64,000 nucleotides of DNA, taken from positions 3,180 to 67,179 of the forward strand of contig CAIOAT010000024.1 in the NCBI GenBank assembly GCA_903856085.1. The letters run 5' to 3'. Origin of the DNA: Candidatus Omnitrophota bacterium (lineage in GTDB: Bacteria > Omnitrophota > Omnitrophia > Omnitrophales > Aquincolibacteriaceae). A program made the position numbers and the translations under genes. Shown piece by piece: positions 17,173 to 61,400 of this stretch. Each line of letters begins with the position of its first letter. The stretch's first letter is position 1. The notes beneath the pieces were generated by a model. It did not search any database and was not told the DNA's origin. It worked only from the letters and a program-made list of their open reading frames with translations.

Positions 17173-17177
17173 ATATT

Positions 17178-34170: not shown

Positions 34171-34244
<74 letters not shown>

Positions 34245-37300: not shown

Positions 37301-40300
37301 GTGGTCTTCACGCCATGGTTCGTGTTTGTAACTTTCAGGACATCGTCACAACGCTCCACCCGGGACGCCTCAAACTGCTCGGTTGGAAAATTTCCTGCGA
37401 CCGGCCAAGCCTGGGATTTTCCGTCCGGACCCGCCGCCGTGTCCAAGAGAAAGAGGACTCGACCGCAAGGATCAATCTGATCATATGAACGGCGGCTGAT
37501 ATCACATTCCTTGCCGAGGAGTTCGCTGTAAATTTCACCGTTTTCCTTGGCCACTACTTTGTATTCGCGGTTCGCCAATTCACTACTTTGGATGCGGCGT
37601 GCGCGAGACCTGCGCCGCAGCAAGCGGATCACGAATGAAAATCCCGTACAAACCAGGATACACAAACCAATGAGAACCAGCATTTGCGGCAACGATAGAG
37701 AATGTAAGTATGGGATCAACCCTTTTCCTCTTGCGGCATTTTGGAGCTTCTCGGCCGAACTCCACACTTCATCCCACTGCTCGCCGCGCGGGATGTAAAA
37801 AGGGATCAAGAGCGGGGCCCATGTCGCGAACCGCTTCACGCCTTCAGGGATGTACCGTTGTGCTGCCGCCTTGCCAATGAATTTCGAGACTTTCTCATCC
37901 AGCTTATCCATGCCGAGAAAACTCAAATTCACCAGCGTTGCGACGCGCAGTCCCATGTGATCCATCCAGATCAGGATCCGGAACGCATCGAACGCCAGGA
38001 TCCAGATGAACATCTTGAGACTCCAGGCCACGAACGCAGGCGCTGACATCGTGATATTGTTGTAAATGGCAAAAAGCGTCCGGATCGCACCGTCCTGGTT
38101 GTACCAAGTCGGGTTCGGCATCATGCGAAGGAACGTATAAATGATCGGAGACATCCAGAGACCCCACCGCAGCACATGGATCATCAGCTCGCTTAACTGG
38201 GCCAGGCCCGCTTTCGAAAAGAAAAATTTGATCGGCGTTTTATCTTTATCAAAGAACGCCTGCATGAACACCTTGTTCACGGCAAAGAGCCACGTAGCCA
38301 CCGACCATTTGATGACGCCATCCAACGACTCGGTAAAAAGCAATTTGACGCCGCCCGGACAATACCCCAAGTCCATTTGACCCCATTTACTGATCAAGAC
38401 CGGCTGGACGTAATGTCCCAGGGAATTCAAATAGGGATAGGTTGTTGTGGACATTTCTCCCAGCGAATTGAAAGCGGGATACGACGCATATTGCGCCGCG
38501 GAAAAATGAGCGGTGACATAAAGCTTGAATTTATAGAGAATGACCGCGACCTGCGGAACATCCATATAAAAAGCAACGGCACTCCCGAGAAAAACGCCGA
38601 GAAGTGAATCGACAAAATAAAGCCGCCAGGACTGAACCTTCCCGCAGCCCCGTGAGGCATAGTACACATCCCTCAGAAAACTTATGCCGCCCGAGGCCAT
38701 CAGACCGATCAAAAGGCCAACGAGAACCCGCTCCGGCATCGCTTTTCCGATGTAACCTTGTGCGAGCAGATAGGCAAAACCGAATCCGGCGACGGCTCCT
38801 CGAGCATAAAGCGTTTTGCTGCGATAGCTGTAGCGCGTCCGTTCAAAGAACGGGAGACTGCCATCAAAGGTCTCGATAATGGTCTTCACGAACGGAAACA
38901 CCAGAGCCCCAGCGAGGGTCCCGATCACATAAGGAAAGGAAGCCATGAATTTGAGCCCCGCAGGAGCTGCAAAGATCATGGAAAGCGCGTAGAGGATTGC
39001 CATCAGGATGCCGCTGTAGGCCATGCCTTTTTTCATGCCGGTCGTAACATTCTTAAAAATGTTGTCCTCGGAAGGCGCGATACGCTTGCCGCCATCCAGA
39101 AGGATCCCGGTAATAAGATAAATTTCTCCCCACAATCCGCCGAAAGAAAGCGCCGTCGCCAGAACAGAAATAAGAGCCCTCAATACCTCCGGCAATCCGG
39201 CCACCCCGGAGAGCGATCCCAAATTAGCAATGGAGGGAGCTAACACTACCCCTAAAGAAATCAGCAGCAGGAACAAATGAGCCTTGACCGTCTGAAGTAA
39301 CTTCCCTTTTGTCACGTACCCGATCCCGGCGGCAAGAAGTTCGTTGAAGACGAACACGACCAAAAGCCTGCCAATGCCCTCGAGAAGCGCGGGCCACGCG
39401 GCCAAAAGTCCAAACGTAGCGCTGTAGGTCATGCTCTGCAAGAGAGTCACGTTTTCCAAAAGAAGCAGCCAACCTACGAGGTACGGCGTCCCCACGATTA
39501 AAGCTCCGGGGACCGTCTTCAAATTTTTTCCGGACGAAGCGAACTCATGGGCATTGAAGATCTGATAGATCAAGAACGCGACCGTGGCCGTGAGCTTATT
39601 GATCATGAGCAGGTGGCTCCACATCGTGGGAGCCTGCAAGAGTTCCAAGCGGCTTGAGGATGCCGCGAGAATTCCAGTCACTAGGACATTCTGGAAAACC
39701 TCAACCGGCGTCAGATGTTTTCCAGTGAATTGATGCTTCAAACATTCCGCGATCAAGGCCCCCACCACTCCCGCGATAAGAATGCCCGTCATAGAACCCA
39801 GGCTTAAAATCTCTGCGGCCCCTAGCGCATAAATCCCTACCGCCGTCCCCAGGATCAATACGGTGATAGCGCCGTAGAGAAAATCCTTTTTAAGCCTCGC
39901 TAGGATCGAGGTTTCTTTCGGGGAAACAATATCAGGACCTTTGTCGCTTGCCGACCGAGACTGAACCCCCACCCGATTTTGGCCAGAGAGTTTGCTCGCG
40001 AACGCGGCCAAAAGCGCCAAAAGGAATGCGAGAATAAGGATCGATCCGAATTTTATAGCGATAAGGTATTTCTTGAAAAACGTGGTCTTACAGAAATCAA
40101 ACCCAAGATACAAGGTTCCCTTGATGGAATTCGCGTGACCTTTGGGGCTGATAATGAAGTTCACTTCTTTGAGTTCACCGATCTCCTTCCAGTGAATTGA
40201 TTTCTGGATCGCATTCCAGCCCGGCTTCAGACAGAGCGGAATCATCTGGGTATTCGCCGACCCGATCACCTCTGCATTGATCGAGAGCTGGTTAAGCTGA

Positions 40301-41355
40301 GATGCCTCAAGCGCCCGGAGACCGAATTCCAGAGTATTCACTTGTGCGCCGGTTAGATCTGCGGGAAATTTTTTTGTCCAGACGGTGATCGAAGACCCTG
40401 ACGACAATGTATATCCCAGATCATAAACATCTTTTTTCGATTCTTCATCAAAGGAAAAAGTAATAACGCCCTTGGCCTCTCCGTCATTGGACACTCCCTT
40501 TTCTCCCGCATCTAAGAGACCGAACGAGGACCGGGCGGGCGATACTGAAACTTGAGCGGGGCTGGCCGGCAATGCCTTCACGGCCGCAGGAACCTGGACC
40601 GAACGCGCGGTGGGTGCTAGCTTGGCAATCACGGGAGCTTGGACTTCAGGAACTGCCGCAGGCACTGCGGTTGTCCGGGGAGCAAACGTCGCACCGGTCT
40701 TTGCGACACCGGTCGCCATTTTTTTTGTCACAGTATTCGAAGCGGTTTTCGCCGCTGCGGGCAGGACGGCGGAAGGCGTCACGGGCTTGACCACCGCCAC
40801 TTGCTGAATGAACTCCAAAGAAAATGCCAAAGTTCCCTTAACGGTCGCGGTGGCACCCTGGGGGCTGACCACAAAAGCGACTTCTTTCAAAACGCCGACT
40901 TTGGTCCAATCGAGCTTCTCCTGCAGAGGATTCCATCCATTCTTGAGGCGAAGAGGGATTATTTGAACCCCCTGAGCTCCGCGCACCTCCATTGTCACGG
41001 AAACTTCGGTCATTTGCGTTGCAAGAAAAGCCTTGATGCCGATCTTGACCAGATTAGCCGAAGAAGCTGTGAGTTCTGCTGGAAAGCTCTTGACCCACGC
41101 CGTGGCGACGGCACCCTGAGGAATTGAATAATCAAATTCCAGGATATCCTTTTTGATCGCTTCGTCGAAAGTCGGAGTCAACGTGCCTTTGGCTTCTGCC
41201 GTGACCGTCGTTCCGCGCTCGCGTGCGTCAAGCAGCTTGAACGTGGAAGCCGCCCAAGCGCCGGTTGTGACCGTGAGGCTCAGGAGAAGGACCGCCAAGA
41301 CTCCGCAAGCAGGGATTGAAGCAAAAGATCGTAGGTTTTTGAAAATAGAGGGCAT
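34393..41355 (-). CDS. Giant (2320 aa) membrane protein: signal peptide, two tandem extracytoplasmic repeat domains, ~20-TM region, cytoplasmic GH94-like glycoside phosphorylase domain
   Basis: Signal peptide ending AWA. Internal duplication (residues ~38-190 vs ~285-430) separated by a P/A-rich linker. Hydrophobic helices across ~37630-40068. C-terminal ~1070 aa with GH94-like elements including GVGDWNDGLD at 35253-35270 and the (alpha/alpha)6-type motif GFRDQLQDTV. Confidence 0.75.
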   Translation of the reverse strand: MPSIFKNLRSFASIPACGVLAVLLLSLTVTTGAWAASTFKLLDARERGTTVTAEAKGTLTPTFDEAIKKDILEFDYSIPQGAVATAWVKSFPAELTASSANLVKIGIKAFLATQMTEVSVTMEVRGAQGVQIIPLRLKNGWNPLQEKLDWTKVGVLKEVAFVVSPQGATATVKGTLAFSLEFIQQVAVVKPVTPSAVLPAAAKTASNTVTKKMATGVAKTGATFAPRTTAVPAAVPEVQAPVIAKLAPTARSVQVPAAVKALPASPAQVSVSPARSSFGLLDAGEKGVSNDGEAKGVITFSFDEESKKDVYDLGYTLSSGSSITVWTKKFPADLTGAQVNTLEFGLRALEASQLNQLSINAEVIGSANTQMIPLCLKPGWNAIQKSIHWKEIGELKEVNFIISPKGHANSIKGTLYLGFDFCKTTFFKKYLIAIKFGSILILAFLLALLAAFASKLSGQNRVGVQSRSASDKGPDIVSPKETSILARLKKDFLYGAITVLILGTAVGIYALGAAEILSLGSMTGILIAGVVGALIAECLKHQFTGKHLTPVEVFQNVLVTGILAASSSRLELLQAPTMWSHLLMINKLTATVAFLIYQIFNAHEFASSGKNLKTVPGALIVGTPYLVGWLLLLENVTLLQSMTYSATFGLLAAWPALLEGIGRLLVVFVFNELLAAGIGYVTKGKLLQTVKAHLFLLLISLGVVLAPSIANLGSLSGVAGLPEVLRALISVLATALSFGGLWGEIYLITGILLDGGKRIAPSEDNIFKNVTTGMKKGMAYSGILMAILYALSMIFAAPAGLKFMASFPYVIGTLAGALVFPFVKTIIETFDGSLPFFERTRYSYRSKTLYARGAVAGFGFAYLLAQGYIGKAMPERVLVGLLIGLMASGGISFLRDVYYASRGCGKVQSWRLYFVDSLLGVFLGSAVAFYMDVPQVAVILYKFKLYVTAHFSAAQYASYPAFNSLGEMSTTTYPYLNSLGHYVQPVLISKWGQMDLGYCPGGVKLLFTESLDGVIKWSVATWLFAVNKVFMQAFFDKDKTPIKFFFSKAGLAQLSELMIHVLRWGLWMSPIIYTFLRMMPNPTWYNQDGAIRTLFAIYNNITMSAPAFVAWSLKMFIWILAFDAFRILIWMDHMGLRVATLVNLSFLGMDKLDEKVSKFIGKAAAQRYIPEGVKRFATWAPLLIPFYIPRGEQWDEVWSSAEKLQNAARGKGLIPYLHSLSLPQMLVLIGLCILVCTGFSFVIRLLRRRSRARRIQSSELANREYKVVAKENGEIYSELLGKECDISRRSYDQIDPCGRVLFLLDTAAGPDGKSQAWPVAGNFPTEQFEASRVERCDDVLKVTNTNHGVKTTIEISLPDMDSTAELWKITIENLTERSRQLKVVPYLEWVLNGGLHDRFHTQYARLYPEMEYVAGSNAILSWQKSTKSMGLLASDVAPEGFHSGRVDFIGRGQSLWAPRSLETLDFLPAKDTAAYPTFDPIGSLMVNALVAPKATATVRLMIGYSKNKKVALEMIAKYLKPNPAQGAVLSEKKHRSLLIGHGEIPPGTPQPYYEYLDNGNKLKVLTPYTPRPFDHAMSNAVHSTMVTNRGLHTSCNGNSQQNRLTPDWPDTVTKETPTEAIYLYDPDRDEWYSPTYQPLNDNNAKHESEFSVDGTAIFRMKDGNLSSQLTVYVPPEDPLGVYLLTLKNDEDKPRRMRIAPYFQMVLSFQPERSGPLEMRHDKASDALYFANCRNIFRSGWAFASMSIPADCVETKRGRFFGSGRGVKRPFMVENAGPDATQLTDDGQIAGFVGTVEIPAHGECTVAIVLGQAEDHKKAVTLVQKYKNLETVRKELEGTRQWWLGLMGTVKVETNQPEFDRYQNWLKYQALAERIWARRGFYQTSGAFGFRDQLQDTVNLIWVDPALARKQILLHASQQFVEGDVNHWFFTLTDGRTSFSCRSHASDNPLWLAWGAAEYVRATGDQTILDEMAAYLISEFPFAPLPKNKQGWGHLYHRTTRADTLYKHCMKSIDLVIKQRSGKNGLPLMGVGDWNDGLDEIGSEGHGESVWLGFFLYYILKEMVDIIGQKEGDAKKAYYVKKMEALKVALEKTWRGDRYLRAFHDDGTEIGVKGSGVWEIDALTAAWSVMSGINFERGVTIFNTALQVLEKDNAILLGWPALREDTKPYLGRSSKYPEGVRENGMYCHGVQWLVRAARLLAEEYEKRGDQANAEKYRETAYRLWLKVSPIAHMHEIEIYGGQPNKQSADILTTFEPGRMIWHGYTGAAGWMLRQAMEGVVGALVVKNKLVLPNDLDKPRGALKVISVTRDVSKSPIRPKPL

Positions 41356-43413: not shown

Positions 43414-46400
43414 TTACGCCGATTTCTCGATATCTTGCTGAGCTGCAAATTCAAGAGCGAGGGCTTCCATATTCATTACGAAAACGCCATTTTTTGATGA
43501 AAGGCCTAACAGATCAATGCCCTTTTCCTTTAATTTTGTGATCAGCATCCCGGGATTCACTTTCATAAGCCCTTGATCCATCGGTGACGCCGAGGCAAAG
43601 ATCTTATTGATCAGAACAACCGCAGCACAAACAAGATTCTTAAGTTCGGGGTTGTCTTCGCTATTAAAATCCGCCAAGATCGAAAGTATTCCGTTCTGCT
43701 TGACCCCAAGCTCGGTCGTTAAAAACGCCATAAGCGCTTCGTCCTTACTCGCATTGATCACGCCGGCCACAATCGCATCCGCTGATTTCCTTTCGCTGTA
43801 TCTGTATTTCATGACAACATCAGCCACTTCATTCCAGCCTCTCCCCACCGGGTGTTTTTCATCATAAAGCACAACCAGGCTCGGGATTTTTATCTTCCCC
43901 CGCAAGGCCTTAATCACGAGTTCCGAGTCGGGTCCATTATCAACGATCATCGGAACTCCAGAGCCGGGCATTTCATTAATCCTGTCAATGATAGCACTCG
44001 TAAATCTCTGAATTTTCCCAACGTCCTCGCCTCCGACACGCGCTCCCCTTACAGCCACAAAACTACCCAGCATGACCCCCGCAACGATGTTCCCCGCCAA
44101 AATATCCGGATCCCCATAACCTGCGAATCCTGCAAGGCGCAGCCGTAATTCTGGCCTCGAAGAAGTTAATCCTGTAAGTGCTTCGACATCCAATCCCAGC
44201 AAGCTTGCCATGAACTGATCGGCAATCTGCCCGTATAATGATTTTTCTTTTTCAAATCCCGCCAAGCCCCCTTCCATCATCCTCGCCCGAACCTTATCAG
44301 GATTCGCCCCATCACGCATAAGCACCAAGATCGCCGCAGCATCTATCTTCGGCAACTCCATCAGCGGCATATTAGCTAATCGCACTTCCGATCGGATTTT
44401 GGGACCAGCCTTGGACTTGCCCTCCGGGATTTCGGGGGTTTTAGGCTGCGCGGTAACTGGCTTTGCCGGTGAAACAACAGATTCGGCCTTTCCACTTTTC
44501 CTCGTCAGATCTTTTCTGGAGGACTTGCCCGATCGAGGGGTAACACCTGCTGCCAATTCTTGTTCGATCGATGGAAGGACGTACGCCATGTATTCTGAAA
44601 TAATCTGAAAAGCCAGACTGGGCTTCGAAACGTCTTCGAGACTTTTCAAACCTTCAAAAAACGCCTTCAGCTTACTGCCCGCACTTTTCTCGCCCGTCTT
44701 GAATCTGACACCGACATTGGCCGCAGCTTCTGCGAGCGCTCTCAGTTCTTTTTGATCCCTCTCCACTTGAACCTTGATTATATGAAGCTTGTCTTGATCT
44801 GCTTCTGAAAGCACCCCGTGATCCGAAAGGAGCAAGGCCTCTATTTTCAAATCTTTGGAAAGACGGGCTATTACCTTCTGAAGCGCTTCGATTAAAATAT
44901 CCTCTGTTCCATTGCGCCCAAACCCGCTCAGAACATGAATAGCTTCCAACCGCACGCTGAGCTCACCATCTGACAATCTCGGCTTGAGTACTCGATGCAA
45001 ATATGTGCTCGCCAGTCCGCCCCCTATTTTCAGACTATTTTCATATTTTCTGATCATTTCTATCCTCTCCCATGGATCGGGGACGAAACCCAAAAGAGCG
45101 ATCAAATCTTCGAAATCATCCGGCGTCTCGAGTTTAAGACCGATTCGTGATTCTGCCCGATTAGGCGAAAGCGCCGAGGCAGAAACGAGGCGGTCCCAGC
45201 GAAGGATTGTCTCACGGAGCAGAACGCGGTAACGACCCAGGCGCTCATAGTATTCTTTTTCCGCGGCCTGCTCGGCCATCCCCGGCTGTTTCTTTTTGAT
45301 CGATAAAGCCAAACCGTATTTGATCACGGGCAATTCTTTTGCACCGCTAAAATAATGACTAGAATTTCCCGGAATCGCGAGGAAAGAAGTAAATCCCCTC
45401 AGAAATTCCTGGCCGTTCTTCGACGCGAGCAGTCTCTCCCCGTTATTCAATGGAACAATCGCAAGGGGATCGGCAAAGAACTTCATCCATTCCTTCCCGA
45501 ATTGTTCGTCTGTCATCGCCGTCACTTTTGCCGCATATTGCTGACCGCCCCAACCTTTCAAAATATTCCACTTCCGGAGATCCGGGACATTCCAACTCGC
45601 CTCCGCACGAAGTTCCTCGAAGGATTTCATCCCCGAGTTCTGAGCCGGAAGCTTCCCAATCTGCTGAGCACCCGTGGTTGCAAGAAATTTGTCTGCATTA
45701 TCCTTCAGCTCTTGGGATGCATAAAACGTCTGCGTCTTTTTGTCGAAAATTACCGGTGGCAGAGCACCGTATTTTTCAGTTTCATAGAACATCGGCTGCA
45801 GCCTGAGACGCGCTACATTGATCAACTTCTTCTCTTTCAGTTCTTTGGCTTCCCGCTCAACTTCCTTTAGGGTCATCGTACCCCAAAGTAGCGGCTGCCG
45901 CTTGAGGCTACTCACCGTCTTAAGACTAAGATCCTGAAGATCCGCAACCGTCATCTTGTTCTTGATAGGCCATTCGATCACGAAACTCTTATGACCCGTC
46001 TCAGTCGTTACGATTCTCCATTGGTTTGCCAGAACGATCTGCTGATTTTCAAGCGATAACGTGTCATAGTCGCCGGAGAGATACGCGGGACGACCCCACG
46101 CCACATCATCCATATTTGCGGAGGACTGGAATGTTCGGATATTCCTTTCGAACAAGAATTTTGCCGCCTCCAAAAGCGGCCCCTCGACCAGATGATCGAG
46201 ATCGGACATGCGCGTTACGATCGTCGCAGCTTCCAGAATGGGATTCTCTTTGCTGATCTTCTTCGCTCCCGCACGCGATTCCACGGACCGAACCTCGGAG
46301 CGGGCTGGCAATACCAGCAACACGCCTTTTCCCTCTTTTGAATTCCAGATCTGGATCGCCGGACGGCCGTCAAGCATTCCATAGGTTGCCTCGAGCTCTT

Positions 46401-49400
46401 CACCGTGATAAAGCGTCGCTTTAGTATCAAATCCCGGTTGGCGAGTGGTTTCCGTGAAAGGAATCCGCTCGACGCCGGCTTTCGTATAAAAAAGCCGCTT
46501 TGCATCATCATTCGAATTGGCAGTCTGGATCAAACTATCAGGATCAAACTGATCCCACTGATACATGAAAGACTTTTCCCGGATTCTTCCCAGGATCATC
46601 CCCGGGAAAAGATCGTCCGGAAAATTCTCAGAGTCAATGCCCGTCAAAGCCAGTGCCGCAAGAGCATAAGGATCGCGAATAACTTCCGCCGCCATATTGA
46701 GCAGAATTCGTTTTGCCAGAACCCGGCGGCCATTTTGCCCGATCGATCGCAGGGCAAAGCGGTAGGCCCTCTCAAGAACCGGACTGTACGCATTCAGTGT
46801 GCTGAAGAAAACCTTCAGATCCCGGGCCACGACATCAACGTCCCGGAACGGCACGGCGCCCGAATACACAACTTCGCCGGCATCATCCCGATAATAAACG
46901 TCCGCTCGATCTGCATCGTGCGTATCATAAAGAAGCATGCCTTGGTCCCTAACGAGCCGCTGGGAATTCTGCAGGATGTTCGCAAGCGCTGACGGATCCC
47001 GGAAATACTGCACCGCCAAGCGAGCATTGATCACGACATCGTATTGATGGCTCGCGTCAAAGACTTGCGGAGACGCGGTGATGTTTGCCTTTGGATCCTG
47101 GATATTGATCCGCTGATACCAGACTCCCGTTTCCGGATCCTGCCACATCCCATTCGCATCAAACTGGAACATTTCCTTACGCTGGAATTGATCCTTCGCT
47201 CCATCATATGCGAAATAAACAGGCTGGAATTGGATATCGTTCGCCACCAGCTCGATCTCGGTCCCTGAAGGCAATGCCTGGCGCAGCATATCGCGAAAAA
47301 GAACCGCCTTGCTGTTACGACCAGGCTTCTCAGCAGCGCCGATCAGAAGCACCTTGATCTTTTTCCGTGGCTGATAAGGAAGATTCAGCAAAGCATCACT
47401 CTCGGGATGGGCCTCCGGTCCGAACCAAGGATGATCATTCAGCACCCTGTTACCGTTGCGAAGATCCATCTGCTCAATAACTTGAGTGTCATTGAGCCAC
47501 TTCCCTGCCAGGAAATTCGTCGCGGCAACAAAGAGCGGCGAGTTACGGTTCCTATCGGTGATCTGGACCGTGTAATGAGATAGAAAATCCAGAAACTCCT
47601 TCTGCACTTCAGGATGACGCTTGAGCGCCTCGAAATAGTTCGCCGCGGTCTGGACCCTTGAGGCAAACTCGGCTCTCGTAATTTCGCTCGCGATCCCGTA
47701 ACCGACAAAATCAAGGATTGCGTCCACCAAAAAGAATTTTTGATAATTCGCGTACCAATGTCCTTGCGAGCGTAAAGTTTCGATCCGCTGGTCCCGTGAC
47801 TGCCGGATACGGCTTCCAAATTCGCTCGCATCCTTATCAATCAAGGAGTCAAGCCCTTCACCCAAATCGTCCTGGATCGTCAGCCCATCGTAGGGTTTGT
47901 CGCTCCATTTGGCATTCAAGCCGTCCAGATAATTCACAAGACTATCAAGCAGGTTATTGCTTGCAGCAGCCTCCGCGGTAAATGACTTACGATCCATGAT
48001 CCACTGCCCGCTCGGATCCACAAAGATGCGGGTATAGCCTGAGTATTTTCCGTTCACAAAAATGTCATAGATACCGTTCATCTCGTCAACCAACTTCAGG
48101 GATATGCCAAAATCAGCCAACGGAGCCGCTTTATGGTAGTACGGTGCACCATCCGTTCGTCCCAACGATCCAAGCAGGGGCAAATCCCCGACCGCAAGCT
48201 CTGAAGCAAGGATCAAGAGCATTCCGTTCGCCGCCGCAAGTTCTTTGAGCTTGGGGCCTATCGTCTTTTCAAGGGCTTCATAATCGATACCAGAATTCTC
48301 AATTCTTTGAAGCTCGATCACTTGTACATCCAGACGCGGAACGAGATGAAAAACAAGGTTGGGGGTACCAGCAAAATCCAGATAAATAAAAGGTGAAGGC
48401 GTTGGATCGTCGGGATCCTGCATAACGACTCTTCCTTCGACATTTCCGCGTCCTCCCCGACCGGCGTCTGCGGCCGAGACCGCGACGTGATTTTCGTCAA
48501 AATAAACCCTCATCGCCTGCAAAGCTTTCGCATACGGAGTGACGAGATCAGCATTCTGAAAATGCTGCCGACTCAGAAAGCTCGCCGCTTCTGCGGCAAG
48601 ACGGACATCGGCCGTGGGGTATTTGGCTTTTTCGCCCGGCGTCATAGAGGGATAATTCTTCTTTGTGTCGGGCTGAACAAGGATGCTGTGCAGTGCGGAT
48701 TCCTCCGCCGGAACCTTGGCGAGTTCAGAGGGAACTTTATAGTGACCTTCACCGGTCAACACATTGGCTCTGCCATCCGGATCGAGGATGACCATAGCTC
48801 CGCGGGTCTTGATATCCCGGCTCACACCGTGACGCTTGTCGAGTTCATCCTTGATCTTTTGTGCGGTCGCTGCCAGAGGGTCACGGTTATAAAGTTCCCG
48901 GTACGCGGCATCCCTTTCAGCATAACGATTCGTATAAATGCCGGGAGCCCCCGCTAAAGCCGCAACCTCAACACCCGAATCTTCAGCCATCACATAGAAC
49001 GGTCCCGCGATCTTTCCCGCGGCCTGTTTCCTGTAAAATTCCGCTTTGCGCCGCGCAGTGTCCTCATAGGAGGGTGAAACTTCTTCAGGAGCTTTTGCAT
49101 CGATACCGGCTTCAGCGGGCGTAATCACCCGGATATAGGGAAAAGAACTGAAATATTTTTTCCAAGTTTCAACCTTCCTCGGATTTTGCGTCGCAACAAG
49201 GACCTGGAGGATCTCTGCTGAGGCCGCAACTTGTTTCCGCACCTCCGCCCGATTTGTTTCAACTCCGGGTTGATTGGGGATGGTGCCATAAGCGGTTCCG
49301 AGCTCTGCAATTCTTCTTGCAATATCAAAGTCTCGCGGCTTACCAAATTTAACCCCCGCTATCAATTTTTCAAAACGTTCATCGGGTGCACGCCCTCTTC

Positions 49401-52400
49401 CGAGCGAGATCATCTTAGGTTGATATTCACTCAGCCCCATGAGCGAACTAAAAACATCCCCTCCCTCGCTTTCGAAAGCAACCACATCATAACTCCCATA
49501 GGGTTTGAGGATCTCCCTCAAAAATGCTCGCTGCGCAAGAAATCCATAGTTTGCCATCCCGGACATCCCTTGGGGAAAATGAGTGAAGAAATACGTGATC
49601 ACCACCACGCCAGAGCGATCCTCACCTTCTTCTTTCGGAAAAACCAAGAGACGGAAATTGTAAGTCGCCATATTGGAAAACAGTTGCTTCCCTTTTTCGT
49701 CATACACATTTCCTGTTATCTCAAGGGGCGCATCAGAGCCGTCCTTCTTTTCATTCAGTTTGTAGCTGTAGCCAGTTTTTTTGAATTCATCCCATTGCAA
49801 TTCCTGGCGGCTCACAGTTGCCGGGATTTCCGAGAGTGCAATAAATTTGAACTCGGCTTCCCGCCACGGATTCCGGACTCCAAAACGCGTATCTTTGACC
49901 CATTTATCCCGATACGGATTCACCACTCGCGTCACGGACCGGTTAATAAGACGGGTCACCACAAAATAGATCGCTCCTGCAACACCGGCTAATCCCGCGA
50001 ACGTGGATGCGAGCCGGCTCCACAAAACATCTAAGATCCCGACCACCAGGGAAGATACAAAAGTCGCGATCACCAAGTAACTTAAAAATCGGGCAGCGCG
50101 ATAAGAGAACTCTCGCCCCTTCGGGATTTTGATCAGCTTGCTCGCAACCATACCATTTTCAAACGCCGCGATCACTTGTTGAGCCGCAGACCCTGCCCGT
50201 CCCACCGTCTGATCTCCGGCAGTTCCATCCGTTAGATCCTTCACAAACGTTCTGAACGCTTCGGTGTTAAAAACCCCGGCCTCGAACAAAGTACCTTCTA
50301 ATCTTTGATCCGGACGTATTAAAATATTTTTCAGGGCACTTTCCTGCCCGGGCTGGTGCAGGTGGCCCCCCATCCAACCCAGCAATGCATCAAAATAGAA
50401 CGAAACAGTTTCTTTGTGATTCAGAAAGGTCGATAAATCTTCAGCCGGAGATGTCAAATAGCGTTTGAGCGTCTCCCTCGGAGTTTCGCTGGCCGCACTC
50501 CCCTGAATTCCAGGCTTGGATAAACTCAATTTGATCACGCGATTCGCAAGATCCACCGTCGCAAAATACGTTGTATTACCAAACGTCACCTTATCGTTGT
50601 TGATGGGATGATTCTGCCACCTTACATCCCAAGAGCTTCGTGTAGCGATAGAGGGCTTTCCGTCAGCAAATTCCGCCATCAAAAAGTGGCGGCCCCCCTG
50701 CCATTGAAACGCATAATTGCCCCTGCCATCCGCGCCCATGACAAGATCGACCGGCTCCCCGAGATTAAAGAAAATATCCTGCCCCCGAATCTCGGAGCGA
50801 GGCGAAGCGCCCATCTCTTTTCGAATCATGCGTACGACAGATCCCGCAGCCTTGGCCCAGGATTGGGATGGATCTTTTCTTTTTTCTTTCACCACTTGGT
50901 AAGCCAAAGCGACCGACGCTACGATCCCTAAACCCCCAAAGGCATAGCCTACGATTTCTTGTTCGATCGGCACTCGTTGAATCGGTTCGAAGAATTTGAT
51001 GCCATTTTTAGAATCCGCGATAATGCGATCAATATAGTAGTCACCGTACTCATCAAAAACCTGCATATCCCAGACATTCTGCCCCGTCTGAGTATTGCGC
51101 TTAAGCTCTCCCTGGATGCTGAAACCTCTCTGAAATGTTGACGTGCTGACATCCATATAATTTTTTGTTTTGAGATCGGTGAATTCTCGATTGAGAAGCT
51201 CTCGAAGATCCGCCGCAAAAGATTCATCCGGCATCCCCGTACGGAACAGATACGCCTTTCCGGCAGGCTTTACGCCCTGCAGTTTCAAAGCCGTTACAAA
51301 ATTGGCCACATCGCTGCGAAGATCGCCGAGAGTCTTTCGATCTCCCTGATCATCGTACGGTCTGAAATGTGCTGCCACAAGCCGGTTATCAGTTGTCGGG
51401 AGCATAAAAATATTGCATTGATTCCCCTGCGCTGGCTCGACGGTGAATTTCCCGCGACTGATTACTCCCGCCTCATCTTCAGCAAAACTAAAACCACCTT
51501 CGCCTTGCTTGAATGCCTTTCCATCGCTGATATGGAACATAAGGCCTTGAGCTTTTGCGGGTGCCAGGGGTTGCAATCCCGGGGCATTTGTTTGCACTAA
51601 GGTGGCGGCTATCGTTTGCCCAGCGGTTTGAAACGGCGCTGCGACCAAGCCTGCACCTGCGCCTAAAAATATCCCCAGGAAACCGCGACGCCCCATCTGC
51701 CCCCGCAATTCAGGACGAGGTGGGAGAGCCATGAGACTGTTATGTTTTTCGGTTGCCGCATCAATAACATCAATCGCAGGCTCACCAAATTTCTCAGCAA
51801 GAACTCTTAAAGATTCGAACGCCGTCGGAGCATTTGTTCGATCCCCGGCAGCCACCATCGCCGCAAATTTCAGCATGGCAAAAGCCAGTTCGCCACGCGA
51901 CGTTTTCCGTCCTTCGATGCGATTTGTTTCTTCAACAGATTTTTCCAATAAGCCACGGATAGAAATATCCGCCCCCGGCTTAAGCGCATCACTTTCCATT
52001 AGCCGCAAACTGATATCACAAATAAAATCAGGGTCTTGTCCCTTCGACATGGCCGTGAAACGGTTCATTTTGTTCAAGACATCTTGAGAGCGAGCTTCAT
52101 CCAAGGCATTTTGGCCATGGGCCTCAAACTCGTTTTCCGCCTCTCTCGCAAGCTTGAAATCAACTACAGGTGCCGTAATCGCTGATAAAAAGTTTAAAAT
52201 TGAATGGGCAGCATATCCACGGCTTGTATTCCCCCTCTGAAGCAGGTTTTCGGCCGCTCGGACACGCGCCAGAGTATCAACAATCACATTATGATCAGGC
52301 ATTTTTCCGTTATACAGACCCTCCATCAGGCCAACACTCTCAATAGCCGACTGGGTCAAAGCTTCCTCGGCTTCTGCCGCAGTCCTGATCTGCATTTCCC

Positions 52401-55400
52401 AACGCGCATCGGCAAATGCTTTTTCAAAAGAAGACCTTGCATTAAATTCACGGTCGAACGGCTCCAAAAATCGGGACAAGCTTTTCACCGTCAAATCACT
52501 CAACGCTGAAGGCCTCTTGCCATTCAAGTCATCCAATAACTTTTTAGCTTCTATAAAATCACCGGTAGCCATTGCTTGTTGCATTTCATTCAATAATCTT
52601 AAATTTTCACTCCCCGCATCCCTCACCTCGGCGCGCTTTATGGATGAATCACTGATAGCAATCTCAGGATAGATGTATTCAAATAACAGAGCGCTCAGAT
52701 GCTTCTTGTCTTCATTCTGCCGTCCGAATCCTCTCTGGCTTGCCTTATAAATTTCACCTACTTGAGTAGCCGTCAAAGTCGAGTAGTTGTACGCTGAAAG
52801 AAATAGACCTAGCGCAAAAATAATGGCCGTCGGATCGTCTTTTTTGAATGTAACATTTCCGTCGGCAGTACGATCCGAAAGGATGAACGGCCAAATAAAA
52901 TCCTCACCGTAACCTGACGGCAAATTATGTTCCGACGCGACATCCGGCATTCCAGTTTGGCCTATCAAAAGCCCCAACATGACATCCACGCGGGTGGAAG
53001 GGAAAGACGCATGAAGCGCGGCACCTATGGCAAGCGCCGTTTTCCCTGACCCGAAATTGTCAAACACCAAGATCGGCTTATTGACGTCCAACTGTCCTTC
53101 GGCCTGTTTCCGGATCATTTCAATAAATTGCGCCACAGCCGTTCCTTTGTCCCTATCGCTCTGCAGTTTGAGGAACTCGCTAAAAAAATACTTCTGAATC
53201 TCATTCCCGCGTCTTTGCAAATCTCTTATATTCTTAAATTTTTTGTAGGCCTCTTGCAGTATCCGTTCGGATTCCGCGTAAATAACTTTGTGGGTCTCTT
53301 CGAATTCGGCGGGGCCTCGTTCCACCGTGATGGGCAATTGCCCTCGCCAAAAAGCCACCGCCGTCTTGTCCGTATATTGACTCACTGGGAGGATCGCTCC
53401 ATCCCTCCACACCGGCATGAGTTGATGATCAGGAAAACGCGATTTTATTTCCTTATGGATCGCGGGCAAATAGAGGAGGAACCATTTTTCTCCGCTATCC
53501 AGGCCGTAAGGAAGTCTCAATCTGCCGTTCCCCTCCAGGAAATCTTTTGTTTTTTCCTGGAAATTTTCCTGGATTTCACTTAACCCTAATTTGCCAATAA
53601 CTCCCTGAAGGACTGCAGCGATCTCTTGCCGGGTCAGGGGATACTGTCGGCCGTCTTGGTCATGGGGCAACAGTGACTTGGGCGGGAGAAATTCCATCTT
53701 CCCCAGTTCTCCGATCGTCCATGTTTCCTTGCGGGAATAATAGTCGACGAGATGATCCACGAGAGGCTGGGGATCATAGACACCAACGCCCGCCGGACGA
53801 ATGTTCATGGGCCCGGCTGCCTTTTTAGTCTGAAATGTTACAAGCTCGAAAGCCCTTTGAAGCCATTGCTGGATTCCGGGAGCTTCAGCTTGCGCTCCCG
53901 CAATCCCCCCTCGCACCTCGGAGCGAATACTGGAAAGCATCGCCTTAAAATTAACAGGCTGCTGGAAGCGTGCGAGATGGACCAACGTTCCTTTTTTAAT
54001 ATTTTGCGAGAGGGAGACTGGCTCCGGGACTCCCGGAAGCATGAGGTACCTTTCGAAAGGACTACTGATCTCCAAAAATCCTCTATTCTCCGAGCCCGAT
54101 GCATTATCCACGCCATAAAGTCCCAGACCGCGCCCCGGTTTTCCTGACGTAGAAACACCTTTTTCAAGCATAAGCGGTATATTCCGCATGCCAGGTCCGT
54201 TGTCATACACAAAAAGCTCCACCCCCTTATTACCTTGAATCTGAACTTCCCGGCCCACCAGGATTCCCTGGATCTCTCCGGCTCTCGGCGGAAGCGGCTG
54301 ATGCTCTTGCAAGGAAACCAAAAGATTCGCCAAATGTTCTTCGTCAAACGCCTGCGCCCCTTTCAGATGGTCAATATTGTCCATAAGTTCTTTAATCATA
54401 AATTCGATCAAAGTGCGTTGATCGTAAGTTTTATAATCAGCATGCGCCACGTAGAGGAAAGGAGCCGGATCATTAAGCCAGCCGATTTGGTTCAAAAGGC
54501 GCTTCACTTCTTCGAACCCTAAAGAAAAGCCCTGGCCACGAAGCAAATCTTTTGCCCGAGAATCTCCGGCGAGAGAATCCTGCAGCGCCTGCAGTACGTC
54601 ACCCTCCACATCCCAAGGCGTTCCACCGGCCCGCGCCTCGGCACGAATTCCAGGCTCTCGTTCCAGCATAACCCCAAGATAAACAGGCCGGAGCGCCCAC
54701 TCCTTCCGGAGAACCTTCTCATCTGTAGCCAGCTCTTTAGCCCACGCTTCAATATCGGGAACATATTTTGGATCGAAACCTTCGAGCACGTTTACCGCCC
54801 CCCTCTGTCGAGCCGAGCCTAAAACTTGGGTCGTTGTGTAAAATTCCCTTGGCAAACCCTCTTTATTGAGCCAGTAACCGTTTGGACGCTCTTCCTTGGA
54901 AGCCTGAAAATTAAAATCACGCAAAAGGACATCGACCAGAGCAGGATTCGAGGTGGTAAATGCATATTTCACGTCTTTAAACTTTCCAACGAAAATCCCG
55001 ACGAGTTGCTTGAGAAGACCCTGACCTCCCAGGCCTAATTCGAGATCTTGATTGATATAAGTACCGTAGATGGCCATGACACCATCCACCTCTTTGGCAT
55101 ACAGGAACATATCGCTTGCTGCAAAGGCGGGTTTCTCTTTCTCATTCGGATTTTTAAAGAAAAGATCGATTCGTTTTGTTGTAGCGTTGTCTTCTACCTG
55201 CATTTCAAATGTCAACTTCGCACCATTCCGCCCCTGCAACACAATCTCGCGGGGCTTCAAAACATCTTGCGCCAATTTCTTCCAGTCAAGCGAGCCCAAT
55301 ATTTTGAGATTCGCAAGCATCTCGTTCATTGTAGGGACCGTGCTTTCAGAACTTCGCTTTTTTTCTGTCAGGAGGAGAAGAATAACCTGCAGATAACCCA

Positions 55401-58400
55401 GACGAAAAACGTCGGGAAGGATTTCCATTTCCTTGGCAGTGATGGGCTCTCCTGTCGCCCCTTGGTATGCCACAAAGAACTGACGGACTTTGTCCAAAGC
55501 TATGGAAGTCCCGTCTTTTTGATAGCGAAGGAGTATGGCACTGGCAAAATCCGCAACTCGCGCATCGGGGTGGGCATATTCGAAGTCAAAAACGCCGTTT
55601 ATTTGATTCTGCCCATATCGAAGGTTCCCCTGATGGAAATCACCGTGGACAATCGTGCGCGGAAGTTGATCGAGAACTCGAGGGGTTAAATGAGTCCTGA
55701 TCTCTTTGACCTGCTGCTGGATCAGATCAAAATTTTCGACAAAAATCTTCTCGGTCGGCGTCAGAGGCGGCCCGCGTTGCTGAATCTCTTGGCGCATCGA
55801 TTCGAGTCTCTTTAAGCTCCCTTCAAAATCTGTCACGGGAATCAATGGCGGCCATTCATGCCCCTGATAGGATCTTCCGGGAAGATCCAAGTTCCGCGTC
55901 GCCATATGGATCTTGGCGAGCAATTGGGCAGCCAATTCCAAGTCCCCACCCTCCACTTGCCCCCAGTCATATTCTTTTCCGTCTATATAATCAGAGAGAA
56001 CGAAGGGTTTCCCATCGATCATGATAAAATTTTCATTTTGAAGTGTTGGGCGGATGACGCTTACGGGGATTCCGGCCGACTTGAGATTCTCCAATAAACC
56101 CGCCTCCCATTGGATCAAATCTTCGGTGTTTCGATAAAGGGGCGCTTTTAGGACATACCGCCCGGTTGCATCCTGGACCGTATAGACATTCGCCCTGGGT
56201 GTCGGCTGGATCGTCACATCACCCTTCAAACCATAATTCTTCGCGACTATTTCTTGCAGGCGCTGGATATCGACACGGACGGGTTCGGTTTGTACATCGG
56301 CGCGGGTTTCGGCGCGTGCGGCATTCGGTGTTGCCGATGCCGCCAAGGCCCGGCTGATCGTTAAGACACCTTTTTCCGGCTGCGTTTTAGAAATAGCAAG
56401 GGTCCAATGATATGTTCCACCTTGTTGTGACGCTCCCGTCTGACGTGAAAAAACAGCTGCTGTCCCGTAATTTTCGGCCAAATGCAAAAATTGATCCAAC
56501 CCTTCTCCAGCTACAGTATTACTCCCCCTTACTTTTCCTGATAGCGCCTCCTGAACATTCATGCCTTCCCCGCCATCAATCGTAATTCCAATAATTTCAT
56601 GCCCATGTTTTACAAAAATAGCAACCCCAAGACTATCGCTTTGCGGAAGTCCGTGTTGGAACACATTCTCAACCGCAAAGAACATCGAGTTATATAAGCT
56701 TGGCGCAGCTTGAGGATGCAGTTTGTCACTTCCAATCCGCTTCATAAGATTTTGAACAACTTCAGAGCTTCGCTTCCATCGATCCTGTCTCCCGTACGGA
56801 ACATCCGGAGTGCGAAGAATTTCCAAGGCAACCGCTCCATAATCGTTCAGCGCCTTAATGTGCGGCTCAAGAGTCTCCCTCTTAACCAAAGCAGACCACA
56901 AATTATAAATTTCATTTACAAAGGAAGGCTCCAGCCCTTGGAATACCCCATCATCACTTGCCCAAACAGCACGTGCTTCAAGGCGGGATTGATTCACGCG
57001 GCTCTCGGAGCGCACAGGAACAAAAACTGTGCCATACGAGCCTACACTGTTCAGAAGGATATTCCCGGCCTTGTCCATTTTCATCGTCATGTGCGTCCGG
57101 GATACTGACTTGAATTCCTCTCCCGCCGGCACGACAAGGTCAGCCTTAGGAGACCGCCCAATCACCAACTCCGCTTCTTTCAAGGAGAGTGGCTTCTCTG
57201 ATGCCCACGACCCATCCACAGCACGAGCCGTAACAAATACTCCATCGGTCGTACTCGTCACATCAACATAAACCTGGCCGGCAAGCTGCATACGCAGCGG
57301 CAATTCCGTAGGGACATCTCCGGTAATTCCTTGCGAGGTGATGGTTCTCTTAGGGGTCGCTGCCAAAGCGGTTAACTTTTCAATCATCGGGTCGAGGTTT
57401 CCCGTGAGCCCCGCGTCATCTTCGTTTCTCTCCTTCAACTTCACCAGGCGATCAATAACCCGACGGATCAATACGGGTTTCCGGCCTTTGAATTCGCTCA
57501 CAAATTGATCGCTCAAACCACCCTTGATCGCTTTTAAAGCGGCATCTTCGATCCTGCCTTCGGCAAGTCCGAACGCGATCGAAGCCACTTCGTCCTCTTT
57601 ATTTTCACCCAACCGTTCAGCGAAAAGTGTCGGCCCCACCCCTTCAAGGGAAGGATAGAGAGCATGGGCTTTCATCTTGTCATAGAACGCACGCGCATCC
57701 GCTTCGGAAAGAAAGTTGATAACGATCGGCGATATCTCATCGGGATCATAGGAGAACGTTTTGTCGCGAATGCTTTGTTTTAAATATTTAAAATTGATCC
57801 CCACGCCGCTGGATGCAACCGCCGTTTCCTTCACGATCCTGACCGCATCGTCAAAATGCGTCGGCACGACATTAAGATAAATTCTCCAGTTATTTCCAGG
57901 ATCTTTATCGTAAAACTGTAAATTCTCGTACGAATGCCACCAGAATTTCCATCCAACTCCCGTACCGAACTCCTCAGGATAAAAGCCTTTTAATACCTCC
58001 GTCTTCTTTCCCGAAACTGGCTCCTGGATAAGGTTCGCATTCTCGCTGCTCAGATTCTCGACCCTGAACTGGCTTGCACCGATCCGCGTAATCTTTATGG
58101 ATTTCCTGGGGTCTCCATCCTTAAGCCCGAATCCTTCCGGATTCGAAACACTTTCACCCCTTGCAATACCTCTTATTTTGTCCAAGACTTCATCGGCATC
58201 ACGATTGTCCAATATGTAGGGACTCATCGCTATTCTTTCAAAGATGCTCGGGTCAAGGAGGTAGAAGTCCGAAGGATTTTTTACATACTGACGCGCACGA
58301 CTAATGGCAGGATCAAGCCTTACAGCGAGGTTGATATTGCCTCTATAAATATCGGGATCGTAAGCCCGCAGCTCAAGAGCCTGATCTACGCCGAATTTGA

Positions 58401-61400
58401 TCTGAATCGGTACGCTGTAATTCATTTCAACGGAAGCGCCCGGCGCAAGAGTAATGCTCTGGGGCGTTTTGGATTGGACCGCTTTAATGACAGGAGAAGA
58501 GGCTTCCAAAGCATCAAGGACCGCGCTGCTACGCCTGGCGAAATCCGTATCATCAAACTGCATGGACTGAAGCGCGGCGATCTGCCTGTCGATTTTTGCA
58601 AGCAACTCTCCGGCTATCTTTCCGGCAGCGCTGATTTTGCGGACATCACCCGTTGCTTGGATTGTCTTAAGCGCCCGCTCCACTGTCCGACGGTCATAAT
58701 TCAAGCGCGCGCGAACCATGATATCCCGCTTCAGGAAATACGCCTGAACCTGAAGCGGTGTCAATTCGAGGACATTCAAAAAGCGCGCTTCTTTGGTGCC
58801 GGATTTTTCTCCCTCTAACAATCGTATGCCCTGCTCATCGTTGAAAGATCCTAAAGACGCAAAATCACCTTGGACCCAATCCTGCCAATTTTCACGGCAT
58901 GCGCGTACAGATAATTCCAAAATATCCTTCAGCTGACTCTTCTGCTCTTCAAAAAAGATCGAGATCCTTAGTGCCGACTCGGAATCAAGACCGGTCAGAT
59001 CAGGCTCGAGGGAGTTTACCCGCTCCATAACGCGCGAAATCTTTTCCCCATCGATCCCCTGCGGCCCTGTGAGAGCATCAAAAATGATGGAGGAAGAAAC
59101 TAGTCTTCCATAAACCTTGTTCAATCCTGCGGAAGCCAGGTCATAAAGAACGTAGCGTTTGACGCCATCGATGACGGGCGTTTCCATGTTATGGTCAATC
59201 CCAAAATCATGAGCCTTGGTCAACGCGAGGAAAACCATAAGATTTTCTATCCCGGATCCGGTAGTTTCGGCAGGTAATTCTGCGGCCGTCAGGGTTTTTG
59301 CATCGCGAACCAGTAGTGCCCTTACTTTGTCCGTTTTTGGATCGTTGACGCCGGCGCCTTTTAAAAATTCATCCCATTCCTGGCTGAACTTTCCGGGGAC
59401 ATTATCTTTTTGCAACGAAGAAATCTCAACCCAAGGAGGAACATTGACCCCTAAAGCATCCGCGAGCTTATAGGCCCGCAATTCGTCATTCGTATCGGCA
59501 GGAACATATTTCAAATACCAAACGAGACCTGTTGCCGGATCTCTTAATCTCCAAACCCCTGTTTTCATTTTCACTTCGATCACCAAGTCCTGTAGAGCCG
59601 GCGGCGTTCTTTGTCGTGCGCTCTGACTACCGGCAACCGCCACGACTTCCCGCTCAACAAACTCCGTACCGTAGGACCCCGTAGATGTAAGCTGAATATT
59701 GCCTTTTTTATCTACCATGACGATCATGTGATCACGAGAGATCCGGGTATCTAAAAGCACTTCGGCCTGATGGATGCGTCCAATCTTGATGGTTGTTTCA
59801 ACCCCCTCAGGAACCGAGTAGGTCCGAGCCTTTCCATTCGATGCAACAGTAACTTGCAAACTCCCCGATGGACTGCGATTAACATCCACATAAGCCTCGA
59901 CTCCGGCGAGCTTCATCCGGAACGGAAGCGCCTTGGGTGTCTCACCTTTAATATGGGTCGCTTGGACATTAACAAGCGACGCCTGACCCGCCACAAGCTC
60001 CGCAGATTCACCAAGCCCTGGTTTCCGGATTTCGGATCTCACTTCAGCGCGAGTGGCGGCCGTTTTGAGTTCTAGCACCATAAAATGCCGTCCTGTGTTA
60101 TCGTTCATTTTTTTGTCCGTCGGGATCTTGAACCCGAACCGGTCCGCGTTCTCTTTGATCATGGCGTAACTGCCATCCTGCCCCTCTCGCATCTCCCCAT
60201 AGACAGGAAGACCGGGAAACTTATCGCGGATCTCGCCCATGAGTTGCAACAAGAGCTTCCCTCCGATCCCCGATTTACGCTGTTCCGGGTCGACGGCAAG
60301 ATCCATGACATAAATAATGTCACGCTTGGTGTCCGGGTCATACCCCACATAAGCGATGACATACCCCATCAATTGACCGTCCCGGTAATAACCTCGGCTC
60401 AGATTCTTACGGCGATCACCTTGCGCCATTTCATTCAGCGCAGCGCGAGCCAAGGAGTTTTGAATGCCGGACAATCCCTGGAGAAGACTGGGAGCGAGAT
60501 TCCCGTAGACCTTCCCTTCCAACCTGCTCACATCCAAAATATCCTCGTTATCGAGAGAATAAATTCCCGTCGCAGGAGCTGGGGCTAGCGGCATTTTTAC
60601 ATCCAGCGGAATTTCCGTGACCTCGTCACTTTTTTTATCCGTGTAACTTAATTTCAATTCCGACATAGTTTCATTCTCGACAGTGTTTCCCGCCAGACGA
60701 TAATCGCTGTTATCCACCCCAATCCTCAACTTGGGTAAAAGCGGCAAGCCCTGGCTCTTTTGATCCCGCGCATAGCTCTTACTGGTCGGAAACTTCGCCA
60801 TATAACGCTCGAAAAACTGTCTGTAAGTTTCCGTCACGAAATCATTCCACGTTTTTCCTTTACCGATGTCTTTTCCTTCATTCATCTTCCGAATAAAGTT
60901 CGGATCCGCTTCAATATTATCAGCCGCCATGACCACACCCGTACGCCCCACGGCCTCAAACTGGGAGTCCTTGAGTGCCTCAAAAAGATTGAAGTGATCG
61001 GGTTGACGCTGGAACGCAGCATCCAACTTGGGGTATTTCTCTCCCAAGGGCCTGTCCAGGGTGAGCACCGACGTGATGATGCTCTTATCATAAAGATTTC
61101 CAAGCTGATCTTTGACTTGAACTGTCAGCGCAAAGATCGCCGTCGCAGGATGGGAATAAACCCCTTCCTTTCCATCTCCGAACCCCATACAACTAGGCGT
61201 CTCATCTCCTGCAGTTCTGGACCGGTAATCCGACTTGGGATAGATCTGAGCTGTGAAACGATCACCGAGCCCCTTGCCATCAAGAGCTTTCTTCATCGAA
61301 AGGAGGAATTTGTTGTCCTCCTCACCCCGCGCAGACTCCGGTCGTGCCATGATCGATTCATACCGTGCAACGAGGATATCCCGAAATTGGATCTCGACCG

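Follow-up and report, generated by a model that had tools for sequence, protein, structure and literature searches.

Giant and long open reading frames (ORFs) are common in the phylum Omnitrophota (PMC10066038). Genes of the type II secretion system (T2SS) and of pili are conserved near the giant genes, HATPase_c is a frequent domain of their products, and cleavage of these proteins has been suspected, with the cleavage points unknown (West-Roberts et al., 2023, 10.1101/2023.11.21.568195). A 2026 preprint places methyltransferase, PF02518, GNAT, HAD, and HD domains together in Module 1 of a Pfam co-occurrence analysis, and favors an uncleaved, membrane-anchored cytoplasmic scaffold as the form taken by Omnitrophota long proteins (10.64898/2026.06.07.730766). 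HATPase_c, GNAT, and methyltransferase modules in such proteins are already described (10.64898/2026.06.07.730766; 10.1101/2023.11.21.568195). The very long ORF considered here is encoded on contig CAIOAT010000024.1 of Candidatus Omnitrophota bacterium (assembly GCA_903856085.1) and was analyzed in a window of 64,000 nucleotides, which is the whole stretch of DNA under study. Within this ORF, a reading made from the sequence alone had singled out an APH-type phosphotransferase between two GHKL ATPase signatures, followed by a Walker A-like motif, and had suggested an internal phospho-relay.

The ORF resembles the Omnitrophota giant and long proteins (the 'Archaeovorins' and the 'multi-enzyme metabolic cluster' class) in its phylum, in the T2SS and type IV pilus genes nearby, and in having modules of the HATPase_c, GNAT, methyltransferase, and nucleoside triphosphate (NTP) pyrophosphatase types strung together. 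It differs from the 'Archaeovorins', which have at least 30,000 amino acids, in its size of at least 6,840 amino acids and at most about 11-12 thousand, the upper limit being given by a source contig of 74-79 kb. Unlike in the giant proteins, no HEAT, glycosyltransferase, or TPR domain was found in the visible 6,840 amino acids, and the APH and FHA modules present here are not mentioned in the preprints on those proteins. The ORF runs on past base 64000 and has its N-terminus outside the window, because no upstream stop codon occurs within the window. It carries transmembrane segments and few annotated domains. Two other proteins of the window, PilB and the GH94 protein, belong to 90%-identity clusters in which the named members are Candidatus Omnitrophota bacterium.

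As a matter of general knowledge, MARTX toxins and the polyvalent proteins of phages and conjugative elements also feature shuffled, protein-sized modules and short conserved sites between them. The present ORF differs from these in several respects: no autoprocessing cysteine protease or zincin is found in the visible 6,840 amino acids, the sole match to an LPD family is insignificant (LPD28, E 0.1), the enzymes are housekeeping-like and not toxins, and the gene is chromosomal in a bacterium.

Module order and separators

The region is moderately likely to be a run of autonomous modules within a 'beads-on-a-string' Omnitrophota long protein, bounded by short separators of the form R-[S/A/P]-E-x-R. 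Four modules would follow one another: cassette C (the first GHKL signature), the APH kinase with a domain of about 210 amino acids (D2), cassette E (the second GHKL signature), and cassette F (the Walker A-like motif). These modules would act independently, or after release, and would not form a fixed GHKL-APH-GHKL relay; the whole ORF would join the multi-enzyme long proteins already reported for Omnitrophota. The modules and separators alternate as RSESR, C, RAETR, APH with D2, RAEAR, E, RSEVR, F, and RAEVR, as follows.

43414..63936, extending to 64000, minus strand: very long ORF, at least 6,840 amino acids, no upstream stop in the window
56998..57012, minus strand: separator RSESR, residues 2309-2313
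56317..56997, minus strand: cassette C, residues 2314-2540, probable SpoIIAB/RsbW-like GHKL domain
56302..56316, minus strand: separator RAETR, residues 2541-2545
55474..56190, minus strand: APH-type (eukaryotic-like) kinase domain, residues 2583-2821, Pfam PF01636
54646..55269, minus strand: D2, residues 2890-3097, about 210 amino acids, a fold without match
54631..54645, minus strand: separator RAEAR, residues 3098-3102
53926..54630, minus strand: cassette E, residues 3103-3337, N-terminal helical subdomain and GHKL/Bergerat ATP-binding domain
53911..53925, minus strand: separator RSEVR, residues 3338-3342
52636..53910, minus strand: cassette F, residues 3343-3767, unannotated family
52621..52635, minus strand: separator RAEVR, residues 3768-3772
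Residues 1296, 4074 (RPELR), 4380, 4896 (RAEVR), 5879, 6260, 6515, and 6594, minus strand: remaining separators of the long ORF

Thirteen separator sites occur in the long ORF, against 0.15 expected and a maximum of two in 2,000 shuffles, and they always stand between recognizable domains. Outside the long ORF, the motif is found three times across all six frames of the window. The codons at the sites vary, and selection therefore acts on the peptide. A DNA or RNA repeat, or an RNA element, was considered and rejected for the same variation in codons and for the lack of any tandem repeat or Rfam match in the ORF, which also contains no tRNA. Seven Omnitrophota relatives carry the separator as well, at 3-18 sites each, and the sites with sufficient flanks total 88 in eight Omnitrophota long proteins, or 25-40 times the compositional expectation. 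Position 2 is serine in 68 of these, alanine in 18, and proline in two, while the flanks are polar and unconserved. The spacing between separators has a median of 248 amino acids and an interquartile range of 184-379. Use of the motif as a phosphorylation site was rejected, since the serine is replaced by alanine or proline at 20 of the 88 sites.

A further relative, P0003 (MGH7198758.1, Candidatus Omnitrophota), contains a cassette E module and lacks RxExR sites; the sequence GARLA recurs at its module boundaries, which suggests that separator sequences may be lineage-specific. The separators would mark module boundaries, either as protease processing sites or as standardized linkers. A text search of the literature for RSEVR, RAEVR, and RSELR returned nothing relevant, and R-[S/A/P]-E-x-R is not described as a motif, linker, or cleavage site in either preprint on these proteins (10.1101/2023.11.21.568195; 10.64898/2026.06.07.730766).

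Cassettes E and F are found elsewhere in other company. When 1.84 billion representatives were searched exhaustively by HMMER with residues 2890-3772, 15 proteins were recovered; 11 of them match cassette E alone (23-36% identity), and four (P0001, P0004, P0005, and P0015) are homologues of cassette F. Each of the other proteins matches either cassette E or cassette F, never both, and the two cassettes recur with different neighbors in other Omnitrophota long proteins as well as in stand-alone genes, which encode proteins of 202 and 205 amino acids for cassette E and of 342 and 382 amino acids for cassette F. In a Pfam scan of six relatives, the neighbors of cassette E were formyltransferase, FabD-like acyltransferase, CheR and other methyltransferases, patatin, and canonical HATPase_c domains, and none of the six had an APH domain. 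All named homologues of cassettes E and F come from Candidatus Omnitrophota metagenome-assembled genomes and are long proteins, most of them partial. On these comparisons, cassettes E and F are mobile units. The GHKL-APH-GHKL order, as judged from the same data, is not a conserved architecture, because cassettes E and F match other proteins singly, the relatives lack APH, and the neighbors differ. The remark of the sequence-only reading that no described family has this order is correct, but it is uninformative for an order that is not conserved.

Neither the whole core nor cassette C nor the alignment of the cassette E family found anything in word-indexed homology searches, so that cassette C has no homologue by this route. 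When genomes and metagenomes were scanned with the core and with the same family alignment, the only find was one stand-alone cassette E gene, from Candidatus Riflemargulisbacteria (L001 2003-2611, plus strand, JBAXBT010000132.1). This gene encodes the 202-amino-acid protein, identical to P0008, and adjoins mnmE and a jag-like gene. The cassette E family is therefore not limited to Omnitrophota or to long proteins.

Several points weigh against the view of autonomous modules in a string. Scans of the visible 6,840 amino acids revealed no protease domain. With two FHA domains and as many as three kinase-like modules, the ORF has a phospho-signaling content above that of the relatives scanned. 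The GHKL fold of cassette C is only probable. Finally, no orthologue of the long ORF was found in any collection searched, and the local module order could be conserved within a narrow clade.

By itself, the kinase/ATPase core adds further modules to a described Omnitrophota class, and changes little. Two unannotated module families are defined with alignments, namely an RDG / D-x-x-GSGK[ST] cassette and a GHKL cassette bearing an N-terminal subdomain of its own, both of which escape Pfam and recur across Omnitrophota. The separator motif is a more interesting lead than the GHKL-APH-GHKL order. As a strict motif that divides at least eight Omnitrophota long proteins into protein-sized units, it leads to a concrete cleavage hypothesis, and it also offers a practical guide for splitting giant ORFs before structure prediction and annotation.

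The separator as a candidate processing site

Under an extension of the favored reading, translation would yield one chain, which cleavage at R-[S/A/P]-E-x-R would turn into about 13 or more products of protein size; the kinase and the GHKL proteins would then act as ordinary free proteins, and some products would be exported. This is a tentative possibility. The motif is a strict one of five residues with a small residue at position 2, polar and unconserved flanks, and protein-sized spacing, it occurs between domains only, and the units between separators equal stand-alone genes elsewhere. Twin-arginine (Tat) signals function only at an N-terminus, and the following segment lies in the middle of the ORF.

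51631-51693, minus strand: twin-arginine-signal-like segment GRRGFLGIFLGAGAGLVAAPF, residues 4082-4102

The Tat-like RRGFLGIFLGAGAGLVAAPF begins nine residues after the separator RPELR at residue 4074, and comparable segments, SRRSFMK and SRREVLK, follow separators in P0002 and P0003. However, simple membrane anchoring could account for the Tat-like segments, and no protease is found in the visible ORF to perform the cleavage. In addition, the presence of GARLA in P0003 indicates that RxExR is not universal. Cleavage was already suspected by West-Roberts et al., without sites, whereas the 2026 preprint favors the uncleaved membrane-anchored scaffold.

Taken on its own, cleavage at the separators is a tentative proposal. 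In a wider form of it, which is possible and slightly more doubtful, long and giant Omnitrophota proteins in general would be processed at R-[S/A/P]-E-x-R, their ORFs would be bacterial polyproteins that string ordinary enzymes together in the manner of an operon, the APH kinase and the GHKL ATPases among them, and cassettes would be exchanged as separator-bounded units. If true, enzymes would be freed by cleavage and individually targeted, some with a Tat-type signal exposed only then.

Three of the relatives, P0007, P0011, and P0013, have a signal-peptide-like start in their N-terminal parts (the first ~550-790 amino acids) and share a module before the first separator, with the strings IQDAH..EAQ, GGAEYAH, and FGGFH. 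P0007 and P0013 are not flagged as partial. The shared N-terminal module of these two, a candidate protease, has no Pfam match, and the idea that the module common to all three proteins might be the processing enzyme is pure speculation.

The four modules

Under the favored reading, that of autonomous modules between separators, each module can be taken on its own. The six motifs quoted in the sequence-only reading are all present in the minus-strand frame of the long ORF, in the places where it put them. The motifs that bear on the identity of each module are as follows.

56650-56676, minus strand: N-box-like AVENVFQHG of cassette C
56560-56586, minus strand: ITIDGGEGM of cassette C, residues 2451-2459, with the G1-like DGGEGM at 56560-56577
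56488-56508, minus strand: G2-like GEGLDQF of cassette C
56140-56157, minus strand: VLK lysine motif of the APH domain
55624-55647, minus strand: Brenner motif HGDFHQGN of the APH domain, residues 2764-2771
55576-55587, minus strand: DFEY of the APH domain, residues 2784-2787, in the DFE motif region at 55576-55593
54367-54393, minus strand: N box KELMDNIDH of cassette E
54187-54210, minus strand: G1 box VYDNGPGM of cassette E, residues 3243-3250, with YDNGPGM at 54187-54207
54112-54135, minus strand: G2 box GRGLGLYG of cassette E, residues 3268-3275
53389-53412 region, minus strand: invariant RDG of cassette F
53038-53067, minus strand: loop VFDNFGSGKT of cassette F, with FDNFGSGKT (residues 3625-3633) at 53038-53064

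The APH call is borne out in full. PF01636 matches at 87.3 bits against a cut-off of 23.2 (E 1.8e-24) over model positions 11-230 of 239, and by this profile the membership of residues 2583-2821 in the family is certain. The sole solved relative found by sequence is a homoserine kinase (PDB 2ppq, E 9.3e-6), whose HADLFQDN and DFY align with HGD..N and DF. In NCBIfam, CotS (TIGR02906) matches with E 8.6e-22 and type II homoserine kinase ThrB (NF003558) with E 4.7e-19, and matches to the YihE-like PRK11768 occur as well. The substrate cannot be assigned because the CotS and ThrB scores, 77.5 and 68.5, are far below the equivalog cut-offs of 172.7 and 271. The domain is most likely an active ATP-dependent phosphotransferase, a prediction made because the catalytic set of Lys, HxDxxxxN, and DFE is kept. 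Its target may be a small-molecule hydroxyl or a protein serine or threonine. The domain thus resembles the APH/CotS/type II homoserine kinase branch in its full-length Pfam match with Lys, HGDxxxxN, and DFE, and differs from it in being embedded in a long ORF and followed by D2, with which it shares one inter-separator unit. D2 has no match in Pfam, NCBIfam, or PADLOC and no homologue in the representative library. A GNAT fold for D2, which would recall AAC-APH fusions, was tried and rejected (hhalign E 0.11 with a nonsense alignment).

The sequence-only reading had expected two GHKL ATPases that HATPase_c profiles would recover above threshold. The second of the two GHKL regions is confirmed as a domain by a family profile and a structure model, although neither region passes a plain domain scan. 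Scanned alone, cassette E reaches 24.0 bits with PF02518 against a cut-off of 26.4 (E 5.4e-5), and it has no PF02518 match inside longer pieces. PF13581 matches neither cassette C nor cassette E, and gives the cassette E copy in the homologue P0013 a score of 23.9 bits, below the cut-off of 27.4. A 12-sequence alignment of the family (A1) shows conservation of the E-x-x-x-N N box, DNGxGI, and RGKGL, with N85 and G168 nearly invariant. The profile built on this family detects the histidine kinase ZraS (E 1.4e-3) and SpoIIAB (E 0.05) in the PDB. An AlphaFold model made with the family alignment has a predicted local distance difference test (pLDDT) score of 83.6 and a predicted template modeling (pTM) score of 0.81. 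In a Foldseek search of the PDB, 49 of its top 50 matches are GHKL proteins, among them GyrB, Topo VI-B, histidine kinases, MutL, SpoIIAB, and MORC2; the best E is 9.4e-4 and the TM scores are only 0.2-0.4. Profile and model together identify cassette E as a Bergerat-fold ATP-binding domain, divergent but genuine. Retention of the N-box Glu/Asn, G1, and G2 makes binding of Mg-ATP most likely.

A conserved helical subdomain of about 65 amino acids precedes the GHKL domain in cassette E. The cassette has no HisKA match, and no histidine in the N-terminal subdomain is invariant across A1. In the absence of a DHp domain or acceptor histidine, cassette E is therefore not a two-component histidine kinase. 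Its nearest non-cassette relative, P0014, has the GHKL domain fused to a C-terminal region. Among described GHKL proteins, SpoIIAB and RsbW (PF13581) share with the cassettes a small single GHKL domain, an E-x-x-x-N N box, DxGxG, and a short lid, and they are the structures picked both by the cassette E family profile and by the cassette C model. They differ in that the ORF shows neither a STAS antagonist nor a sigma factor or PP2C phosphatase, and in that the cassettes score below the family cut-offs. Cassette E also adds the N-terminal helical subdomain and a 30-amino-acid insert, and its best Foldseek matches are GyrB-type ATPases as much as kinases.

Cassette C is likely to be a SpoIIAB/RsbW-like GHKL domain, as three weak tests agree on the subfamily. 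First, hhalign places its N, G1, and G2 motifs against their counterparts in the cassette E family (E 0.006, probability 6%), at a score of 24.4 against 13.8 +/- 2.6 in 200 shuffles (about four standard deviations; shuffle maximum 24.8). Second, the best Foldseek matches of a low-confidence model are SpoIIAB, RsbW, the RsbW domain of Rv1364c, and SiaB, with E 0.06-0.4. Third, a Smith-Waterman comparison with the SpoIIAB sequence is in register with p ~0.04. The spacing from the N-box Asn to the G1 Asp is, by inspection, 31 residues in cassette C and SpoIIAB alike. The order of helix, hairpin, G1, short helix, and G2 helix is common to the models of cassettes C and E. An internal duplication between the two GHKL regions is not detectable by BLAST. 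Thus, of the two GHKL ATPases proposed, the second is upheld by the family profile, AlphaFold, and Foldseek, whereas the first is only probable, which gives one or two ATP-binding GHKL modules of the small SpoIIAB/GyrB-like type. The proposed likeness to anti-sigma factors is plausible for the first GHKL region.

It is unlikely that only one GHKL domain is present, with cassette C having an unrelated fold in which the N, G1, and G2 resemblances are coincidental and cassette F being a divergent P-loop NTPase or phosphoribosyltransferase-like. Such a view gains from the lack of any sequence match of cassette C in Pfam, NCBIfam, or the PDB up to E = 10, even with its core fragment, and from the poor single-sequence AlphaFold2 model (pLDDT 40.8). 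The SpoIIAB pairwise comparison is also marginal, and one of the 200 shuffles matched the hhalign score. On the other hand, the three tests are independent and give the same subfamily and register, and both the 31-residue spacing and the order of secondary structure speak for a GHKL domain.

The Walker A-like motif that had been read at ~53040 is not canonical. The first glycine of the motif is replaced by Asp in all four members of the cassette F family that cover the loop, no Walker B is conserved in the family alignment (A2), and no P-loop family is recovered, so that cassette F lacks the marks of a canonical P-loop NTPase ([AG]xxxxGK[ST] with Walker B and a profile match). In the alignment, RDG is invariant, and a hydrophobic strand is followed by a conserved D-[TN]-x-G-S-G-K-[ST]. 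No member matches any Pfam family or PDB chain, and the sole signals are to IteA (E 0.027) and IetA (E 0.013), centered on the loop. As far as the alignment indicates, this unannotated family has a constrained loop that resembles a phosphate loop, and it is not a demonstrable P-loop NTPase. Cassette F would be a nucleotide- or phosphate-binding module. The loop may also resemble the phosphoribosyl pyrophosphate loop of type I phosphoribosyltransferases. A role in anti-phage defense was considered and rejected, as PADLOC gave nothing beyond the weak IetA match to the loop.

FHA domains and the genomic setting

The FHA modules invoked in support of a phospho-relay are real, and a third kinase-like region may accompany them upstream of cassette C.

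59647-59787, minus strand: FHA1, paralogue of FHA2 (38% identity, E 3e-19)
57019..57165, minus strand: FHA2, residues 2258-2306, Pfam PF00498 (E 1.2e-7, 32.5 bits against a cut-off of 20.7)
~58777-59619, minus strand: kinase-like strings YLKYVPAD, HDFGIDHNME, and YDLASAG after FHA1, residues 1440-1720

FHA1 and FHA2 lie at opposite ends of a unit of 1,008 amino acids between the separators at residues 1296 and 2309, and only FHA2 is above the Pfam cut-off. FHA2 ends just before the separator RSESR. By inspection, both domains retain the GR...SRxH residues that bind phosphothreonine. Residues 1440-1720 have no Pfam match and may be a third, atypical kinase-like module. Domain scans for HisKA/DHp, REC, STAS, and PP2C partners found none in the ORF.

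An integrated device, in which two GHKL domains, APH, and FHA in one polypeptide would have RsbW-like or APH phosphorylation of serine or threonine read by FHA, is quite improbable. It would profit from the contiguity of the modules, the position of FHA2 directly upstream of cassette C with a paralogue in FHA1 and phosphothreonine-binding residues kept, the resemblance of cassettes C and E to SpoIIAB/RsbW-type protein kinases, and the fact that some APH relatives (CotS and YihE-like PRK11768) are protein kinases, but a separator stands between every pair of modules, the separators are no phospho-sites, no relative inherits cassette E or F together with APH or FHA, and the STAS, PP2C, REC, or HisKA partners are missing. 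The internal phospho-relay of the sequence-only reading is not supported on the same grounds, together with the mobility of the cassettes, the six relatives without APH, and the non-canonical Walker A-like motif.

Other modules of the long ORF and other genes of the window are as follows.

60220-60390, minus strand: GNAT acetyltransferase module of the long ORF, residues 1183-1239 (E 8e-7), just before the separator at residue 1296
48625-49200, minus strand: Ham1/ITPase-type NTP pyrophosphatase module of the long ORF, residues 4913-5104 (Pfam E 4.4e-16)
34393-41355, minus strand: GH94 cyclic beta-1,2-glucan synthase-like membrane protein of 2,320 amino acids, with supersandwich and catalytic domains
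27658-30408: hybrid kinase with both HisKA and HATPase_c
10178-20638, minus strand: T2SS/type IV pilus cluster with a secretin, two GspE/PilB, and one GspF/PilC, 23-33 kb from the long ORF

The Ham1/ITPase-type module comes right after the separator RAEVR at residue 4896. In contrast to cassette E, the hybrid histidine kinase has HisKA and HATPase_c together. The remaining window is ordinary bacterial chromosome, with genes for an AsmA-like protein, a CCA-adding enzyme, RNase G, and a spermidine-synthase/TPR protein in addition to the hybrid kinase. Its sole RNA gene is a tRNA-Arg(TCT) at 34171-34245 on the plus strand. The GH94 membrane protein is encoded directly downstream of the long ORF region.

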